DNA from: a virus
Lineage: Duplodnaviria > Heunggongvirae > Uroviricota > Caudoviricetes
Reading direction: 5' to 3' (one strand)
Length of the DNA: 6,961 bases
IMG/VR virus record: IMGVR_UViG_2531839579_000008
Within the stretch, counting starts at the first letter, position 1; the number at the start of each line of letters is the position of its first letter. The notes below the pieces were generated by a model, which searched no databases, was not told where the DNA came from, and was given only the letters and a program-made list of their open reading frames with translations. The position numbers and the translations under genes are program-made. Shown here piece after piece: positions 1 to 6,961 of the stretch.

Positions 1-226
1 TAATTGTATTATCAATAAAATAAAAGCTTGGGCGAGCGCATATAAAGTATATATGGCATTTTGAAAGTTGTTTTTCTTGTTCTAAATTAATTTTTGCATC
101 AGACGTTAGTTGCTGAGCAGTAAGCATCGCTGTAAAACTATTTAAGTATCCAAAAGCAAATTCGTGTATGAATTTTCTTTTCACTCGAAATATCCTCACT
201 AGAAATGAATAATATTGGTTTTTCAT
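1..226 (-). CDS. Hypothetical protein, N-terminal 75 codons only (gene runs off the left edge); candidate accessory/moron gene
   Basis: Reverse-strand frame is open for 75 codons from ATG (complement of 224-226) to position 2, with an in-frame stop (complement of 236-238) just upstream, so this ATG is the first possible start. An uninterrupted frame this long is unusual in DNA of about 30% GC (my count: 26% in 1-100, 35% in 101-200). Translation begins MKNQYYSFLVRIFRVKRKFIHEFAFGYLNSFTAMLTAQQLTSDAKINLEQEKQLSKCH; I recognise no family. No convincing Shine-Dalgarno. Missing from the supplied ORF track probably because it is edge-truncated. Confidence 0.45.
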   Translation of the reverse strand, partial: MKNQYYSFLVRIFRVKRKFIHEFAFGYLNSFTAMLTAQQLTSDAKINLEQEKQLSKCHIYFICARPSFYFIDNTI

Positions 227-555
227 GATAATACTCTATTGATCCTAGACTTACCATTTAAAAAACGAACTGACATGCTCCCGTTGATTAATAAGCTGTA
301 AGGTTAGCAATTCTTTTGGCGTTGAGAACAACTGCGAACTTCCGTTCCTTGCTCAAAGCAGACTGTTAGATTTGATAGCGTTTGGGCTATGTAAGTAGCC
401 AGTTGGAGAATGAGTGAGTGCAAATCAGGACTGGCGGGCGAATTGCCTGCATTTTCTTTATCTGTTGTTTCATCCACTGACCAGCCAGGTCAAATAGCGT
501 CTTATGCTCTGCACAACAGAAAATAGTTGCACCCATTAACCACGGAGTTAAACGG
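227..555. promoter_or_regulatory. Divergent intergenic region; expected to hold the promoter of the reverse-strand ORF and the late promoter of the FI-FII-E-T-U-D operon
   Basis: 329 bp with no ORF of any size worth calling, lying between two divergently oriented genes, and a composition shift from AT-rich (left) to GC-rich (right). Shine-Dalgarno GGAG at 545-548, 7 nt before the FI ATG. I scanned 420-555 for the Ogr-type TGT-N12-ACA dyad of P2 late promoters and found no exact match, so no promoter position is called. Confidence 0.3.
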
Positions 556-1741
556 ATGAGTGACTATCATCATGGCGTGCAGGTGCTGGAGATTAACGAC
601 GGCACCCGCGTCATTTCCACCGTATCCACTGCCATTGTCGGCATGGTCTGCACGGCCAGCGATGCGGATGCGGAAACCTTCCCCCTCAATAAACCGGTGC
701 TGATTACCAATGTGCAAAGCGCAATTGCAAAGGCCGGTAAAAAAGGCACGCTGGCGGCATCGTTGCAGGCCATCGCTGACCAGTCAAAACCGGTCACCGT
801 TGTCGTGCGCGTGGAAGACGGCACCGGTGATGACGAGGAAACGAAACTCGCGCAGACCGTTTCCAATATCATCGGCACCACCGACGAAAACGGTCAGTAC
901 ACCGGACTAAAAGCCCTGCTGGCGGTGGAGTCGGTAACCGGTGTTAAACCGCGTATTCTCGGTGTGCCGGGACTGGACACCAAAGAGGTGGCTGTTGCAC
1001 TGGCATCCGTCTGTCAGAAGCTGCGCGCTTTCGGATATATCAGCGCATGGGGCTGTAAGACCATTTCCGAGGTGAAAGCCTACCGCCAGAATTTCAGCCA
1101 GCGTGAGCTGATGGTCATCTGGCCGGATTTCCTCGCATGGGATACGGTCACCAGTACCACCGCCACCGCGTATGCCACCGCCCGTGCGCTGGGTCTGCGC
1201 GCTAAAATCGACCAGGAGCAGGGCTGGCATAAAACGCTGTCCAACGTCGGGGTAAACGGTGTTACCGGCATCAGCGCATCTGTATTCTGGGATTTGCAGG
1301 AGTCGGCACCGATGCTGACCTGCTTAACGAGTCAGGCGTCACTACGCTGATTCGCCGCGACGGTTTCCGTTCTGGGGTAACCGTACCTGCTCTGATGACC
1401 CGCTGTTCCTCTTTGAAAACTAACCCGCACCGCGCAGGTGTGGCCGACACGATGGCTGAGGCGCACATGTGGGCGGTGGACAAGCCCATCACCGCAACGC
1501 TGATTCGCGACATCGTTGACGGCATCAATGCCAAATTCGTGAGCTGAAAACAAACGGCTATATCGTGGATGCGACCTGCTGGTTCAGCGAAGAATCCAAC
1601 GATGCGGAAACCCTCAAGGCCGGAAAACTGTATATCGACTACGACTATACACCGGTGCCTCCTCTTGAAAACCTGACCCTGCGCCAGCGTATTACCGATA
1701 AATACCTGGCAAATCTGGTCACTTCGGTTAACAGCAATTAA
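556..1741 (+). pseudogene. FI: Tail sheath protein gpFI (P2 family), reading frame interrupted; intact only for 556..1350 (264 aa)
   Basis: N-terminus MSDYHHGVQVLEINDGTRVISTVSTAIVGMVC matches P2 gpFI as I recall it. The ORF stops at 1348-1350, but coding continues in shifted frames: frame 0 (1308-1370) TDADLLNESGVTTLIRRDGFR, frame 2 (1373-1420) WGNRTCSDDPLFLFEN, frame 1 (1423-1440) TRTAQV, frame 0 (1443-1538) ADTMAEAHMWAVDKPITATLIRDIVDGINAKF, frame 2 (1541-1738) ELKTNGYIVDATCWFSEESNDAETLKAGKLYIDYDYTPVPPLENLTLRQRITDKYLANLVTSVNSN, with stop TAA at 1739-1741 overlapping the FII Shine-Dalgarno. Each hop is a -1 step, so five single-base losses near 1305, 1371, 1421, 1440 and 1539. Corrected length would be about 396 aa, the typical sheath size. 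Confidence 0.85.
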
Positions 1742-1753
1742 GGAGCCTGACCG

Positions 1754-2272
1754 ATGGCAATGCCGCGCAAACTCAAGTTAATGAACGTCTTTCTGAACGG
1801 CTACAGCTATCAGGGCGTTGCAAAGTCCGTCACGCTGCCAAAACTGACCCGTAAGCTTGAAAACTATCGCGGTGCGGGGATGAACGGCAGCGCACCGGTA
1901 GACCTCGGCCTTGATGACGATGCGCTGTCAATGGAGTGGTCGCTCGGTGGCTTCCCGGATTCGGTTATCTGGGAGCTTTACGCCGCAACCGGCGTGGATG
2001 CCGTCCCGATTCGTTTTGCAGGCTCTTACCAGCGCGACGATACCGGCGAAACGGTGGCCGTTGAGGTGGTCATGCGTGGACGTCAGAAAGAAATCGACAC
2101 CGGCGAGGGTAAACAGGGAGAAGACACCGAGTCGAAAATCTCCGTGGTCTGCACCTATTTCCGGCTGACGATGGACGGTAAGGAGCTGGTCGAAATCGAC
2201 ACCATCAACATGATTGAGAAGGTGAACGGCGTCGACCGGCTGGAGCAACACCGCCGCAATATCGGCCTGTGA
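1754..2272 (+). CDS. FII: Tail tube protein gpFII (P2 family)
   Basis: Intact 172-aa ORF beginning MAMPRKLKLMNVFLNGYSYQGVAKSVTLPKL, matching P2 gpFII in sequence and length as recalled. Strong Shine-Dalgarno AAGGAG at 1740-1745. Immediately follows the sheath gene as in P2. Confidence 0.9.
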   Translation: MAMPRKLKLMNVFLNGYSYQGVAKSVTLPKLTRKLENYRGAGMNGSAPVDLGLDDDALSMEWSLGGFPDSVIWELYAATGVDAVPIRFAGSYQRDDTGETVAVEVVMRGRQKEIDTGEGKQGEDTESKISVVCTYFRLTMDGKELVEIDTINMIEKVNGVDRLEQHRRNIGL

Positions 2273-2279
2273 TTTTCAT

Positions 2280-2300
2280 CCGGTCAGCCTGGCTGACCGG
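2280..2300 (+). other. Perfect palindrome / stem-loop between FII and E
   Basis: CCGGTCAGCC-T-GGCTGACCGG: two 10-nt arms that are exact reverse complements around a single central T, starting 8 nt after the FII stop. It is followed by TTAACCCC, not a U-run, so it is not a canonical intrinsic terminator. Confidence 0.35.
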
Positions 2301-2328
2301 TTAACCCCGATTCATAAGTGAGAAAACC

Positions 2329-2604
2329 ATGAACAAAGAAAATGTGATTACCCTGGACAATCCGGTCAAACGTGGTGAGCAGGTTATCGAACAGGTCACG
2401 CTGATGAAACCCAGTGCCGGGACGCTGCGCGGTGTCAGTCTGGCAGCGGTCGCAAACTCCGAAGTCGATGCACTGATTAAGGTGTTGCCGCGCATGACGG
2501 CACCGATGCTGACCGAGCAGGAAGTCGCCGCACTGGAACTGCCTGACCTTGTGGCGCTGGCCGGTAAGGTGGTCGGTTTTTTGTCGCCGAACTCGGTGCA
2601 GTGA
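2329..2604 (+). CDS. E: Tail assembly chaperone gpE (P2 family)
   Basis: Intact 91-aa ORF MNKENVITLDNPVKRGEQVIEQVTLMKPSAGTLRGVSLAAVANSEVDALIKVLPRMTAPMLTEQEVAALELPDLVALAGKVVGFLSPNSVQ, matching P2 gpE in sequence and length as recalled. Confidence 0.9.
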   Translation: MNKENVITLDNPVKRGEQVIEQVTLMKPSAGTLRGVSLAAVANSEVDALIKVLPRMTAPMLTEQEVAALELPDLVALAGKVVGFLSPNSVQ

Positions 2605-2756
2605 CGTTCCCGAAAAATCTGTCGGTCGATGACCTGATGGCGGATGTGGCAGTGATATTTCACTGGCCGCCATCAGAACTGTATCCCATGAGCCTGACCG
2701 AACTCATCACATGGCGCGAAAAGGCGCTCCGGCGAAGCGGAAACACGAATGAGTAA
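2329..2756 (+). CDS. E': gpE+E' fusion made by programmed -1 ribosomal frameshift near the 3' end of E
   Basis: Slippery run TTTTTTG at 2577-2583 inside the last codons of E. The -1 frame from 2583 is open to TAA at 2754-2756 and reads VAELGAVTFPKNLSVDDLMADVAVIFHWPPSELYPMSLTELITWREKALRRSGNTNE. Total about 142 aa, the size I recall for P2 E+E'. The E' stop overlaps the T start at 2749. Confidence 0.8.
2577..2583 (+). other. Programmed -1 frameshift slippery site (T6G) for E/E'
   Basis: TTTTTTG heptamer, 20 nt before the E stop codon, with an open -1 frame downstream. This is the arrangement of the conserved tail-chaperone frameshift in P2 (gpE/E') and lambda (gpG/GT). Confidence 0.75.
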
Positions 2757-5174
2757 CAATGTAAAATTACAGGTATTGCTCAGGGCTGTTGACCAGGCAT
2801 CCCGCCCGTTTAAATCCATCCGCACAGCGAGCAAATCGCTGTCGGGGGATATCCGGGAAACACAAAAATCACTGCGCGAGCTGAACGGTCACGCATCCCG
2901 TATTGAGGGATTCGCAAGACCAGTGCACAGCTCGCCGTGACTGGTCATGCACTTGAAAAGGCACGGCAGGAGGCCGAAGCCCTTGCCACACAGTTTAAAA
3001 ACACCGAACGTCCGACACGTGCTCAGGCGAAAGTGCTGGAATCGCAAGCGGCGGCGGAGGACTTACAGGCGAAATATAACCGCCTGACGGATTCCGTTAA
3101 ACGCCAGCAGCGGGAACTGGCCGTTGTGGGAATTAATACCCGCAATCTTGCACATGATGAGCAGGGACTGAAAAACCGTATCAGTGAAACCACCGCCCAG
3201 CTTAACCGGCAGCGTGACGCGCTGGCGCGTGTCAGTGCGCAACAGGCAAAACTTAACGCAGTCAAACAGCGTTATCAGGCCGGAAAGGAACTGGCCGGAA
3301 ATATGGCCTCAGTGGGCGCTGCCGGTGTGGGGATTGCTGCTGCGGGAACGATGGCCGGAGTTAAGTTGCTGATGCCCGGTTATGAGTTTGCGCAGAAAAA
3401 CTCAGAATTGCAGGCTGTGCTCGGTGTGGCAAAAGACTCCGCCGAAATGGCCGCGCTCCGCAAGCAGGCGCGCCAGCTCGGCGACAATACCGCAGCCTCG
3501 GCAGATGATGCAGCCGGTGCGCAGATTATTATTGCGAAAGCCGGTGGGGATGTTGATGCCATTCAGGCGGCAACGCCGGTCACGTTGAATATGGCGCTGG
3601 CGAACCGCCGCACGATGGAAGAAAACGCCGCCCTGCTGATGGGGATGAAATCCGCCTTTCAGCTTTCAAACGATAAGGTCGCTCATATCGGGGATGTTCT
3701 CTCCATGACGATGAACAAAACCGCCGCCGATTTTGACGGTATGAGCGATGCGCTGACCTATGCCGCACCTGTGGCAAAAAATGCCGGTGTCAGCATTGAA
3801 GAAACCGCCGCAATGGTCGGGGCGCTGCATGATGCAAAAATCACAGGCTCAATGGCGGGGACGGGAAGCCGTGCCGTGTTAAGCCGCCTGCAGGCACCGA
3901 CGGGAAAAGCATGGGATGCACTCAAAGAGCTTGGAGTGAAAACCTCAGACAGCAAGGGAAACACCCGGCCAATATTTACCATTCTGAAAGAAATGCAGGC
4001 CAGTTTTGAGAAAAACCGGCTCGGTACTGCCCAGCAGGCTGAATACATGAAAACCATTTTCGGGGAGGAGGCCAGCTCAGCCGCCGCTGTGCTGATGACT
4101 GCCGCCTCAACCGGAAAGCTGGACAAACTGACCGCTGCGTTTAAAGCCTCAGACGGGAAGACCGCAGAGCTGGTAAATATCATGCAGGACAACCTCGGCG
4201 GTGACTTTAAGGAGTTTCAGTCCGCTTATGAGGCGGTGGGGACGACCTGTTTGACCAGCAGGAAGGCGCACTGCGTAATCTCACGCAGACGGCCACAAAG
4301 TATGTGTTAAAACTCGACGGCTGGATCCAGAAAAACAAATCACTGGCGTCAACCATCGGCTCATTGTCGGTGGGCCTGGCCTATTGGTCATCGGTGCCAT
4401 TGGCTGTAGCCTGGCCGGTTATCACGGCATCAATGCCATCATCGCGGCAGCAGGCGCAATGGGGGCATCTTCACGACGGTTGGCAGTGCTGTTATGACGC
4501 CATCGGGGCGATTAGCTGGCCGGTTGTGGCCGTGGTGGCCGCCATTGTCGCCGGGGCGTTGCTTATCCGTAAATACTGGGAGCCTGTCAGCGCATTCTTT
4601 GGCGGTGTGGTGGAAGGGCTGAAAGCGGCATTTGCGCCGGTGGGGGAACTGTTCACGCCACTTAAACCGGTGTTTGACTGGCTGGGCGAAAAGTTACAGG
4701 CCGCGTGGCAGTGGTTTAAAAACCTGATTGCCCCGGTCAAAGCCACCCAGGACACCCTGAACCGTTGCCGTGACACGGGCGTCATGTTCGGGCAGGCACT
4801 GGCTGACGCGCTGATGCTGCCGCTTAATGCGTTCAACAAACTGCGCGGCGGTATTGACTGGGTACTGGAAAAACTCGGCGTCATCAACAAAGAGTCAGGC
4901 ACGCTTGACCAGACCGCCGCCAGAACTCATGCCGCCACGTATGGCACCGGTGGTTATATTCCGGCGACCAGCTCTTATGCAGGTTATCAGGCTTATCAGC
5001 CGGTCACGGCACCGGCTGGCCGCTCTTATGTAGACCAGAGTAAAAACGAATATCACATCACCTGACGGGGGTACTCGCCGGGGAACAGCTCGACCGCCAG
5101 TTACAGGATGCCTCGAAAAATACGAGCGGGATAAACGTGCGCGCGCCCGTGCCAGCATGATGCATGACGGTTAA
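2749..5174 (+). pseudogene. T: Tail tape measure protein gpT (P2 family), reading frame interrupted at several points
   Basis: N-terminus MSNNVKLQVLLRAVDQASRPFKSIRTASKSL matches P2 gpT as recalled. The track splits the gene into 2749..2940 (frame 1), 2937..4310 (frame 0) and 4304..5065 (frame 2). Frame hops: near 2913 (IEGF then RKTSAQLAVTGHAL in the next frame); near 4244 (EAVGT then LFDQQEGALRNLTQTATKYVLKLDGW); three hops in 4362-4499 within a hydrophobic segment; near 5062 and 5112, after which frame 0 reads LEKYERDKRARARASMMHDG to TAA at 5172-5174, which overlaps the U Shine-Dalgarno AAGGAGG (5173-5179). Corrected length about 810 aa, against about 815 aa recalled for P2 gpT. Confidence 0.85.
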
Positions 5175-5188
5175 GGAGGTGACGAAAA

Positions 5189-5662
5189 ATGATGCTCGCG
5201 TTAGGTATGTTTGTTTTTATGCGCCAGACGCTGCCACACCAGACCATGCAGCGTGAATCAGATTATCGCTGGCCGTCAAATTCCCGTATCGGTAAACGGG
5301 AGCTTTCAGTTTCTCGGTGTGGGAGGAAAACATCACGCTTGCCGGTGTGCTTTATCCCGACTGACCGGCGGAAGCTGACGATGACCACGCTCAGGCTGAT
5401 GGCAGAGGAAGGCCGGGCGTGGCCGTTGCTGGATGGCACCGGCATGATTTACGGCATGTATGTCATCAGCAGGGTGAGTGAAGCAGGGAGTATTTTCTTT
5501 GCAGACGGCACACCCCGAAAAATTGATTTTACGCTGTCGCTTACCCGCGTTGATGAATCACTGGCCGCGCTTTATGGCGATATCGGTAAACAGGCGGAAT
5601 CGCTCATCGGTAAGGCTGGCAGTATGGCGACTAAATTCACGGGTATGACGGGGGCGGGATAA
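5189..5662 (+). CDS. U: Tail protein gpU (P2 family); full-length frame but with an internal 25-aa stretch that appears to be read out of frame
   Basis: 157-aa ORF with Shine-Dalgarno AAGGAGG at 5173-5179. The N-terminus MMLALGMFVFMRQTLPHQTMQRESDYRWPSNSRIGKR and the C-terminus KLTMTTLRLMAEEGRAWPLLDGTGMIYGMYVISRVSEAGSIFFADGTPRKIDFTLSLTRVDESLAALYGDIGKQAESLIGKAGSMATKFTGMTGAG match P2 gpU as recalled. The middle segment ELSVSRCGRKTSRLPVCFIPTDRR (5300-5371) is Arg/Cys-rich, while the other two frames over the same bases read FQFLGVG, EENITLAGVLYP and LTGG. Confidence 0.85.
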   Translation: MMLALGMFVFMRQTLPHQTMQRESDYRWPSNSRIGKRELSVSRCGRKTSRLPVCFIPTDRRKLTMTTLRLMAEEGRAWPLLDGTGMIYGMYVISRVSEAGSIFFADGTPRKIDFTLSLTRVDESLAALYGDIGKQAESLIGKAGSMATKFTGMTGAG

Positions 5663-6825
5663 TGCTGGATGCGCTGACATTTGATGCAGGCAGTACGCTG
5701 ACGCCGGATTACATGCTGATGCTCGACAGCAGGGATATTACCGGCAATATCAGCGACCGTCTGATGAGCATGACCCTGACGGATAACCGGGGCTTTGAGG
5801 CTGACCAGCTTGATATTGAACTGAACGATGCCGACGGGCAGGTCGGGCTACCGATTCGTGGCGCTGTCCTGACGGTGTATATCGGCTGGAAAGGTTTTGC
5901 CCTGGTATGCAAAGGGAAATTTACCGTTGATGAGGTTGAACACCGGGGCGCGCCGGATGTGGTTACCATCCGCGCCCGGAGTGCAGATTTCCGCGGGACG
6001 CTTAATTCCCGCCGGGAAGGCTCCTGGCATGACACCACGCTCGGTGCGATTGTTGAGGCGATAGCCTCCCGTAACAAGCTGGAGGCCAGTGTCGCTCCGT
6101 CACTGGCCGGAATTAAAATCCCGCACATCGACCAGTCGCAGGAGTCTGATGCGAAATTCCTGATCCGTCTTGCTGAACGCAACGGCGGTGAGGTGTCGGT
6201 AAAAATGGGAAAACTGTTGTTTCTTAAGGCGGGGCAGGGGGTGACGGCCAGCGGTAAAAAAATCCCGCAGATTACCATCACCCGCAGCGACGGCGACCGT
6301 CATCATTTTGCGATTGCTGACCGTGGAGCCTACACCGGTGTAACGGCAAAATGGCTACACACCAAAGACCCGAAGCCTCAAAAGCAGAAGGTAAAACTGA
6401 AACGTAAAAAGAAAGAGAAACACCTGCGCGCACTGGAGCACCCGAAAGCGAAACCGGTCAGGCAGAAGAAAGCGCCTAAAGTACCGGAAGCGCGTGAAGG
6501 TGAATACATGGCCGGTGAGGCTGACAACGTTTTTGCCCTGACCACGGTATATGCCACGAAAGCACAGGCCATGCGTGCCGCTCAGGCGAAGTGGGATAAG
6601 CTGCAACGGGGTGTAGCGGAGTTCTCCATCAGCCTGGCTACTGGTCGGGCAGATATTTACACGGAAACACCGGTTAAAGTGTCAGGCTTTAAGCGCGTCA
6701 TAGACGAGCAGGACTGGACAATCACTAAGGTGACACATTTTCTGAATAACAGCGGCTTCACGACGTCCCTGGAGCTTGAGGTCAGGCTTTCTGATGTGAA
6801 GTACGAAACAGAAGATGATGAGTGA
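5662..6825 (+). CDS. D: Tail protein gpD (phage late control gene D family, P2 family)
   Basis: Intact 387-aa ORF MLDALTFDAGSTLTPDYMLMLDSRDITGNISDRLMSMTLTDNRGFEADQLDIELNDADGQ, matching P2 gpD in sequence and length as recalled. Its start overlaps the U stop (TAATG at 5660-5664). Contains the lysine-rich basic stretch typical of gpD. Confidence 0.9.
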   Translation: MLDALTFDAGSTLTPDYMLMLDSRDITGNISDRLMSMTLTDNRGFEADQLDIELNDADGQVGLPIRGAVLTVYIGWKGFALVCKGKFTVDEVEHRGAPDVVTIRARSADFRGTLNSRREGSWHDTTLGAIVEAIASRNKLEASVAPSLAGIKIPHIDQSQESDAKFLIRLAERNGGEVSVKMGKLLFLKAGQGVTASGKKIPQITITRSDGDRHHFAIADRGAYTGVTAKWLHTKDPKPQKQKVKLKRKKKEKHLRALEHPKAKPVRQKKAPKVPEAREGEYMAGEADNVFALTTVYATKAQAMRAAQAKWDKLQRGVAEFSISLATGRADIYTETPVKVSGFKRVIDEQDWTITKVTHFLNNSGFTTSLELEVRLSDVKYETEDDE

Positions 6826-6906
6826 TGTTTTGTTTTTATCTGTTTGTTTTATAAGGATAAATTAACTAAAATGGCACCATCAACAAAACCGGAAGAGGTG
6901 CTCGCG
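6826..6906 (+). promoter_or_regulatory. D-ogr intergenic region, presumed to carry the ogr promoter and ribosome-binding site
   Basis: 81-bp AT-rich spacer containing a TATAAG -10-like hexamer at 6850-6855 and a Shine-Dalgarno AAGAGG (about 6893-6898) 8 nt before the ATG at 6907. I could not find a well-spaced -35 element, and there is no GC-rich hairpin after the D stop. Confidence 0.3.
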
Positions 6907-6961
6907 ATGTTTCATTGTCCTTTATGCCAGCATGCCGCACATGCGCGTACAAGTCGCTATA
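6907..6961 (+). CDS. ogr: Ogr zinc-finger late-gene transcriptional activator, 5' end only (runs off the right edge)
   Basis: Translation from ATG 6907 reads MFHCPLCQHAAHARTSRY, which is the N-terminus of P2 Ogr as I recall it and includes the CxxC zinc-binding motif. It sits directly after D as in P2. An in-frame ATG at 6871 would add 12 residues (MAPSTKPEEVLA) but has a poorer ribosome-binding site. Confidence 0.85.
   Translation, partial: MFHCPLCQHAAHARTSRY

Follow-up and report, generated by a model that had tools for sequence, protein, structure and literature searches.

The window analyzed here is the entire 6,961-bp contig AQBU01000162.1 of draft assembly GCA_000358575.2, derived from the ETEC colony E. 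coli p0305293.11. The gene order FI-FII-E/E'-T-U-D-ogr, together with homology to P2, identifies it as a P2-like (Peduovirus) tail operon, and Pfam assigns the called genes to the sheath, tube, TAC_7, GpE, tape measure, GpU and GPD families. Coordinates refer to the plus strand, on which all the tail genes lie. The tail sheath gene FI (556-1741) is broken into ORFs of 264, 50 and 58 amino acids, and the tape measure gene T (2749-5174) into ORFs of 63, 457 and 253. Between them, the tail tube gene FII (1754-2272) is intact at 172 amino acids, as is the region encoding the tail assembly chaperones E and E+E' (2329-2756), including the -1 frameshift slippery site GGTTTTTTG. This site and its flanks are identical to the annotated frameshift site of P2, and it is the predicted programmed -1 site for E+E'. 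The tail gene U (5189-5662) remains in frame, encoding 157 rather than 159 amino acids with an internal frameshifted stretch, and D (5662-6825) is intact at 387 amino acids. The contig ends within ogr, of which only the first 55 nt (6907-6961) are present; the ORF called at 6844-6961 is an upstream over-extension of this gene, judging from alignment to the L001 and P2 annotations, which place the ogr start 82 nt past D.

The resemblance to the F operon of P2 (AF063097) is close: the two are collinear with 96.4% nucleotide identity over window positions 337-6961, and share gene order, spacing and the E/E' slippery site. They differ upstream, where the site of fun(Z) in P2 is occupied by a cargo ORF on the minus strand (1-184). 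The contig end truncates this ORF, which has a GC content of 30%, to the N-terminal 61 codons of a 327-amino acid product; the full coding sequence lies at 2201-3184 on the minus strand in the L001 annotation. Pfam and PADLOC scans of the cargo ORF produced no match. The second difference from P2 is the frameshifting of FI, T and U in the deposited record, which we regard as artifactual for the reasons developed below.

The frame hops in these three genes had been recognized in an earlier note made from the sequence alone, and alignment to intact P2-like references confirms that they reflect missing bases. We aligned the window globally against three independent intact references and against a set of 56 P2-like operons. 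It lacks 33 single bases in 31 events, which fall in seven patches confined to FI (5 bases), T (22) and U (6). The estimate of at least 16 deletions was therefore sound in kind but captured about half of the events. The same alignments placed no insertion anywhere in the operon, and no loss in FII, E/E', D or the beginning of ogr, in agreement with the observation that FII, E/E' and D are untouched. The count is sensitive to alignment method. MAFFT fused adjacent one-base gaps into blocks that masked the pattern, and we therefore used pairwise alignments in which isolated gaps are cheap; an overly harsh mismatch penalty, on the other hand, split the mismatches at 4174 and 6833 into paired gaps and inflated the count from the correct 33 to 35.

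In FI, bases are missing after window positions 1303, 1369, 1422, 1440 and 1537. T lacks single bases after 2912 and 4243, and three more after 3042, 3045 and 3050. This triplet, which is frame-neutral with a net change of -3, was the one patch missed by the earlier note, all six of whose patches were correctly placed. A further block in T has losses after 4360, 4373, 4375, 4380, 4382, 4387 (2 bases), 4403, 4405, 4424, 4466 and 4498, and the 3' end of T has lost bases after 5060, 5067/5069, 5075, 5084 and 5111. Those in U follow 5301, 5302, 5322 (2 bases, or one each after 5319 and 5322), 5359 and 5371. The missing bases do not lie in the GG, TT and CC runs to which some had been attributed: for example, T1303 and C1304 flank a missing C/T, and G1369 and T1370 a missing C/A. 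When the 33 bases are restored, FI (396 amino acids), T (815 amino acids) and U (159 amino acids) all become full length without stops, and match the lengths of their P2 counterparts.

The positions of the losses are explained by comparison with two intact haplotypes found elsewhere. Haplotype A is represented by the prophage of ETEC 120899 (L003), whose intact operon occupies CP025916 4165642-4172285, and haplotype B by L088. Type A resembles the prophage adjoining yegQ in ETEC 120899; type B carries the 327-amino acid cargo gene upstream, and its relatives adjoin fieF and pfkA. Over the 6,644 aligned nt, A and B differ at 189 sites, at which the window carries the B allele 99 times and the A allele 57 times, with 33 dropouts. 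Thus, all 33 losses fall on A/B-discordant sites, where a null expectation of 10.1% per site applies under the same criterion (P=1.5e-33). Private substitutions, those matching neither A nor B, number zero over the same 6,644 nt. The window is consequently an A/B chimera of 30 alternating blocks in 6.6 kb. It is purely B-type at both ends, with 26/26 informative sites in positions 1-1257 by block analysis and 41/41 in 5850-6961, and D is nearly all B-type; positions 1-360 are 100% identical to the upstream region of B.

Within the chimera, the losses are block-wise. Every A/B-discordant site is gone from 1303-1537 in FI (5/5), from 4360-4498 in T (12/12), from 5060-5111 at the 3' end of T (5/5) and from 5301-5371 in U (6/6), as are the three A/B sites of 3042-3050; counted over the main dropout intervals, the tallies are 5/5, 12/12 and 11/11. 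The single dropouts at 2912 and 4243 correspond to A/B sites T/C and A/T, respectively. The earlier note had remarked that the locally compensating losses in T and U would be odd under decay. This apparent restoration of frame arises because the losses track the density of SNPs between the two copies, and not the reading frame.

Two further tests used the operon population. The deleted columns were all polymorphic among the 56 P2-like operons, against an expectation of 35% (p ~1e-16), which provides a test independent of the A/B pair. Moreover, five of the seven patches were reproduced exactly by taking two real haplotypes and removing the columns at which they disagree; in 1303-1537, for instance, the pair L003 and L029 treated in this way gives the window exactly. 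No pair from the initial population fitted 4345-4515 or 5285-5340, because the right partner was absent from it, and the L003/L088 pair later fitted both. Indeed, none of the 56 IMG/VR operons could serve as a single B haplotype, the best candidate accounting for 27/33 sites, and L088 was located only by looking up the exact D protein of the window.

Both haplotypes are also present in the assembly from which the window comes. The p0305293.11 draft includes a second partial FI of 242 amino acids (ENG46155.1) on a separate contig, the A-type counterpart of window segment 1-1257 (P0009); typed from its protein sequence, it has 0 differences from A and 2 from B. This fragment stops at approximately window position 1281, 22 nt ahead of the first dropout, whereas in the window both the left flank and the 5' part of FI are B-type. 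Many complete genomes of E. coli, the closest ETEC genomes among them, carry two or three P2-like operons each.

Assemblies of sister colonies contain the same two haplotypes in other arrangements, with a left flank of A-type and a right flank of B-type among their contigs. In p0305293.7 (L084) the left flank is 100% A-type and the mosaic is different, with 26/26 dropouts on A/B sites (P=1.3e-26) and, again, zero private substitutions. There FI, FII, E and D are broken, D being truncated, and T is intact. The only loss block it shares with the window is that in U, from which the same six bases are gone, yielding an identical aberrant 157-amino acid product. The assembly of p0305293.1 (L086) has yet another mosaic, in which U and D are intact; it also has one genuine insertion in a homopolymer, where A6 has become A7. 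Three colonies thus give three different mosaics with different broken genes.

The dropouts on A/B sites, the second copy, the differing sister mosaics and the repairable genes together lead us to conclude, with high confidence, that the window is a chimeric, collapsed-repeat consensus of two co-resident, ~97% identical P2-like prophages, from which a base was lost where the copies disagree. The one-base "deletions" are not real mutations, but the product of merging two prophages from one E. coli strain. As in a collapsed repeat, two near-identical copies occur in the assembly, the consensus holds alleles of both and nothing else, the errors coincide perfectly with the differences between copies, and they are not reproduced between assemblies of clonal isolates. 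Both real operons are most likely intact.

We envisage the following sequence of events. E. coli p0305293 would carry two P2-like prophages with tail operons ~97% identical, which the overlap-layout-consensus assembler would have kept apart across the left flank and 0.7 kb into FI. Beyond that point, reads of both copies would have been pooled into one contig, and the consensus would have alternated in short blocks of A and B. Some intervals would have had no winning copy, and there no base would have been written at any A/B-discordant column; skipping bases at inter-copy SNPs in this way would make FI, T and U look frameshifted. The dropping step itself may have been a tie in the Celera consensus/multi-alignment, or the later removal of ambiguity characters.

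Published descriptions of assembly behavior bear on this scheme. Reads co-assembled from collapsed near-identical repeats disagree at correlated SNPs (Phillippy, Schatz and Pop 2008, PMC2397507). At the level of contig sequences, the window resembles that class in that two copies were assembled together and the consensus is wrong where they differ. It is also a short contig, and on the left the separate A contig breaks off just ahead of the merged zone, at what appears to be the point where the two copies can be told apart. The right end fits less well: it falls within ogr, at no obvious A/B divergence point, and the two haplotypes stay identical over at least 20 nt further. The usual outcome of such a collapse is a single allele with correlated SNPs, unlike the block-wise loss of bases and frameshifting seen here. 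As for the mosaic, the Celera consensus settles on the best allele within each variant window and mixes haplotypes from one window to the next (Levy et al. 2007, PMC1964779), which matches a consensus of 30 A/B blocks and sister mosaics that differ. That description concerns diploid alleles and makes no mention of dropped bases, whereas the present case has a haploid genome with two copies of a prophage; Celera behavior as described accounts for the A/B mosaic, but not for the dropout. The ETEC colony genomes of PMC4462620 (mBio) are described there as sequenced on the Illumina HiSeq2000 at >200x average coverage and assembled with the Celera Assembler. P0305293 is not mentioned in the available text; that p0305293 appears to belong to this collection is judged from its naming scheme and sequencing centre.

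The dropout can also be framed as a variant of the same explanation, in which N or IUPAC characters written at tie columns were stripped before submission and no gap was ever called. Such stripping would remove one base per discordant column and never insert one, as seen, and would leave a contig like the one stored at NCBI, whose 6,961 nt are pure A, C, G and T. It would leave unexplained why clean A/B blocks stand beside blocks in which every site was dropped, unless ties occurred block-wise, and we consider this version possible, though the less likely form of the final step. A direct search of the NCBI contig for ambiguity characters found none.

Alternatively, the second haplotype behind the same consensus artifact could have entered through a mixed culture or cross-contamination, instead of residing in the chromosome as another prophage. 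Co-residence is read here from the contigs of draft assemblies, and heterogeneous samples also yield correlated SNPs (PMC2397507). Against this, both haplotypes occur in all three separately sequenced colonies, A-type and B-type flanks lie on separate contigs in the p0305293 colonies, and multiple P2-like operons are, as noted above, common within single E. coli genomes. In addition, the subjects named as non-clonal in the available text of PMC4462620 are P0299917 and P0299438, and not P0305293. We therefore judge contamination to be very unlikely.

The earlier note offered two readings of its own, the first being a cryptic, decaying P2-like prophage that had accumulated single-base losses across FI, T and U. 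The deposited record does contain frameshifted genes, as do cryptic P2-like prophages of E. coli, to which the window bears a superficial likeness, and a sister assembly has the identical aberrant U. Real prophage decay is expected to be inherited clonally and to bring insertions, larger deletions, and private and non-synonymous substitutions. None of these signs is seen in the window: the sets of losses vary by sister, with T intact in p0305293.7 and U and D in p0305293.1; private substitutions, insertions and larger deletions are all absent; and the mutations are neither inherited by clonal relatives nor of the mixed spectrum that relaxed selection would allow. Relative to L003, the closest complete genome, 77/89 substitutions are at codon position 3. 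Of 1,656 complete E. coli genomes with a match to the 4300-4560 patch, none has its losses. Every loss falls on a site separating two intact haplotypes (P ~1e-33), within a sequence that is itself a 30-block chimera, and the repaired genes are full length. Pseudogenization is thus highly improbable, and already close to refuted.

The second reading, an error of assembly or base calling, was right as to kind, but the cause proposed for it, chiefly homopolymer under-calling in patches of low coverage and low quality, is unsupported. Such random error would be consistent with losses that are patchy and consist of deletions only, with the few gaps that can be placed beside runs of two or three bases, and with the homopolymer insertion in L086. 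Runs of at least two bases hold only 12/33 losses, versus 45.9% expected (p=0.90), and runs of at least three hold 3/33, versus 16.3% expected. Random error is not expected to hit an A/B-discordant site in all 33 cases, nor does it sit well with an Illumina platform at >200x, as reported in the available text of PMC4462620 for the collection to which naming scheme and sequencing centre tie this isolate. It is as improbable as decay. Least credible of all, to the point of being nearly negligible, are real losses through homeologous gene conversion between the prophages, with error-prone repair of heteroduplex tracts deleting one base per mismatch, which would have had to leave -1 tracts exactly at inter-copy SNPs and in differing tracts in each colony of one patient.

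The biological weight of the frameshifts is small, since they are not a real feature. Because both tail operons are most likely intact, the record is unfit for calling the prophage defective. The consequences lie in how such records are used. Chimeric prophage contigs are present in no fewer than three GenBank assemblies from this ETEC colony series (p0305293.1,.7 and.11). Two of these assemblies (p0305293.7 and.11) have artifactual frameshifts at inter-copy SNPs, and fragments arising from these frameshifts have been deposited as proteins (e.g., ENG46107.1, ENG46115.1, ENG46116.1, ENH53854.1 and ENH53861.1). Some 200 isolates went through the same pipeline, and near-identical repeat pairs in those drafts may share the signature, which is visible without reads as deletions only, clustered at third-codon polymorphic sites, with zero private substitutions. 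Where present, the artifact would raise pseudogene counts, spawn spurious "unique" protein clusters and recombinant haplotypes, and distort estimates of within-patient diversity.

A P2-like tail operon, mapped by its ORFs and by megablast, runs across the window, and its identity both to phage P2 and to hundreds of prophages in E. coli is 96-98%. It comprises FI (556-1741, split into pieces of 264, 50 and 58 aa), FII (1754-2272), E/E' (2329-2756), T (2749-5174, split into 63, 457 and 253 aa), U (5189-5662, 157 aa vs 159), D (5662-6825) and the beginning (55 nt) of ogr, which starts at 6907, 82 nt past D, by alignment to P2 and to the operon of E. coli 05-3629 (L001); the gene-called ORF at 6844-6961 (39 residues, to the contig end) is ogr over-extended upstream. 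The slippery sequence of the programmed E/E' -1 frameshift, GGTTTTTTG at 2574-2582, and its flanks are the same as in P2. An exact-protein look-up identified the window as the entire contig AQBU01000162.1 (6,961 bp, GCA_000358575.2), named in GenBank as Escherichia coli p0305293.11; the stored contig equals the window exactly and contains only the characters A, C, G and T.

Full-length matches exceed the window by 33 bases. The alignment to P2 that the earlier note had proposed for enumerating the indels was run globally with three independent intact references (L001; P2, AF063097; and L003, the prophage of ETEC 120899), and gave 31 deletion events, which remove 33 bases in all, and no insertions inside the operon. 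The clustered small deletions described in that note were thus confirmed, and every patch of frame loss was borne out; its count of at least 16 was about half the true number, and the frame-neutral triplet at 3042-3050 had been overlooked. Losses of the 4300-4560 patch occurred in none of 1,656 matching complete E. coli genomes, the best of which matched at 95.2% over a record span 12 bases longer, and none of 79 IMG/VR P2-like loci had a net loss. When the missing bases were put back, FI, T and U became full length with no stops, and 77 of 89 substitutions relative to L003 fell at codon position 3. The coding signal has thus not decayed.

The deleted columns, mostly third codon positions, were all variable among 56 P2-like operons, vs 35% expected (p about 1e-16; this alignment gave 35 gaps, two being split mismatches). 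In each patch, the window matched at least two distinct population haplotypes with zero mismatches, and these haplotypes disagreed with one another exactly at the absent bases. Removing the disagreeing columns from a real haplotype pair, of which L003 was nearly always one partner, reproduced the exact window sequence in five of seven patches. The window's exact D protein led to intact operons in three unrelated assemblies (L085, L087 and L088) and in the sister colony p0305293.1 (L086). Haplotypes A (L003) and B (L088) differ at 189 sites in 6,644 aligned bases (190 over the full 6,750 nt); of these sites, the window has the B allele at 99, the A allele at 57 and a dropout at 33, and no base in the aligned 6,644 nt was neither A nor B. 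All 33 dropouts lie on A/B-discordant sites, and 10.1% of positions qualify under the same lenient criterion, therefore P = 1.5e-33. The allele states form 30 blocks. Both ends (1-1257 and 5850-6961) are pure B, and between them A and B blocks alternate along with dropout intervals at 1303-1537 (5/5 A/B sites lost), 4360-4498 (12/12) and 5060-5371 (11/11). The contig ends inside ogr, at a point from which haplotypes A and B agree for at least 20 further nt.

Both haplotypes are present in the strain. A second FI, which is partial (242 aa, ENG46155.1), lies on another contig of the same assembly and is A-type (no differences from A, two from B), and the 5' part of the window's FI is B-type. ENG46155.1 ends 22 nt ahead of the first dropout, near 1281 in window coordinates, which is where separate assembly of the two copies ceases. 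The left flank of the window is 100% B (360/360), that of the contig from sister colony p0305293.7 (L084) is 100% A-type (1010/1010), and the L086 contig extends into the surroundings of fieF and pfkA, as the B-type locus L085 does. Unlike L085, L086 carries a transposase gene of the IS110 family between pfkA and sbp. Between FI and the tail-fibre genes, where P2 has fun(Z), the B-type prophage carries a low-GC (30%) hypothetical gene of 327 aa (window 1-340, ORF start 184, minus strand; whole in L088 at 2294-3277 and in L001 at 2201-3184, both minus) with no match in Pfam or PADLOC; among the matches listed, only five complete E. coli genomes cover this part of the window. The A-type prophage has different cargo in the same hotspot (L084 702-1637 and 2422-3288). 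Its 288-aa protein has no Pfam match, and its N-terminal 139 residues match the PADLOC candidate defence family PDC-S64 (E=4e-21), so it may be anti-phage cargo in a known P2 variable locus.

Sister colonies do not reproduce the loss pattern. The mosaic of L084 differs from that of the window (69 A and 99 B in the raw per-site counts), with 26 dropouts, every one on an A/B site (P = 1.3e-26), and no private substitutions; FI, FII, E and D are broken, T is intact, and only the six losses in U are common to it and the window. L086 (AQEK01000042.1), in which U and D are intact, shows yet another mosaic. Its T shows other error types, at window-equivalent positions of about 3775 and 4378: a homopolymer insertion has turned A6 into A7 and a single base off the A/B sites is deleted, together breaking the gene, and there are three private substitutions. 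Clonally inherited mutations would be common to sisters; assembler tie-breaks need not be.

The contig is therefore a chimeric consensus in which the near-identical operons of two co-resident prophages are merged, with bases absent only where the two copies disagree. When near-identical repeats collapse, reads with correlated SNP differences are assembled together (PMC2397507), and the Celera consensus takes the best-scoring allele per variant window, making a haplotype composite between windows (PMC1964779), which accounts for the A/B blocks. In some intervals, balanced read sets of both copies would let disagreement yield no base, either because a SNP is shown as staggered base/gap columns in the multi-alignment and the gap wins, or because an ambiguity character is written and later removed. 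P0305293.1 was isolated in Bangladesh in 2011, and its sequencing centre was GSCID (PMC4309559). An mBio study that covered several ETEC colonies from each patient used Illumina HiSeq2000 at >200x coverage and Celera Assembler, and its only non-clonal subjects were P0299917 and P0299438 (PMC4462620); from the naming scheme and sequencing centre we infer that the p0305293 colonies belong to it, because its text does not name P0305293.

A mixed culture could have supplied the second haplotype, but this is unlikely, as both types, with their respective flanks, occur in three colonies, and two to three P2-like operons are present in many complete E. coli genomes. Homopolymer or low-coverage error, which the earlier note had suggested, is right in kind, as the losses are artefactual, but wrong in cause: runs of at least two bases hold 12/33 losses vs 45.9% expected (p=0.90, no enrichment), the losses coincide perfectly with A/B sites, and the reported platform and depth argue against it. 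That note's other reading, genuine deletions in a decaying cryptic prophage, is rejected, given complete genomes lacking the losses, losses on polymorphic sites, a coding signal that has not decayed, a window made solely of A and B alleles, both haplotypes in the strain and sister colonies with different losses. Of novel readings just one is left, in which mismatches directed a real deletion process; it is exceedingly improbable.

The deletions are not a biological feature, and the finding is of value because it warns users of these records. GenBank holds protein entries for the frameshifted U and for artefactual fragments from these contigs (ENG46107.1, ENG46115.1, ENG46116.1 [listed as well with WP_001661088.1], ENH53854.1 and ENH53861.1). 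At 90% clustering the aberrant U of 157 aa is a singleton, and both a RefSeq WP accession and a UniRef100 entry are listed for it. Collapsed-repeat consensus error has a signature that can be read without reads: deletions only, at polymorphic, mostly third-codon sites, with no private substitutions.
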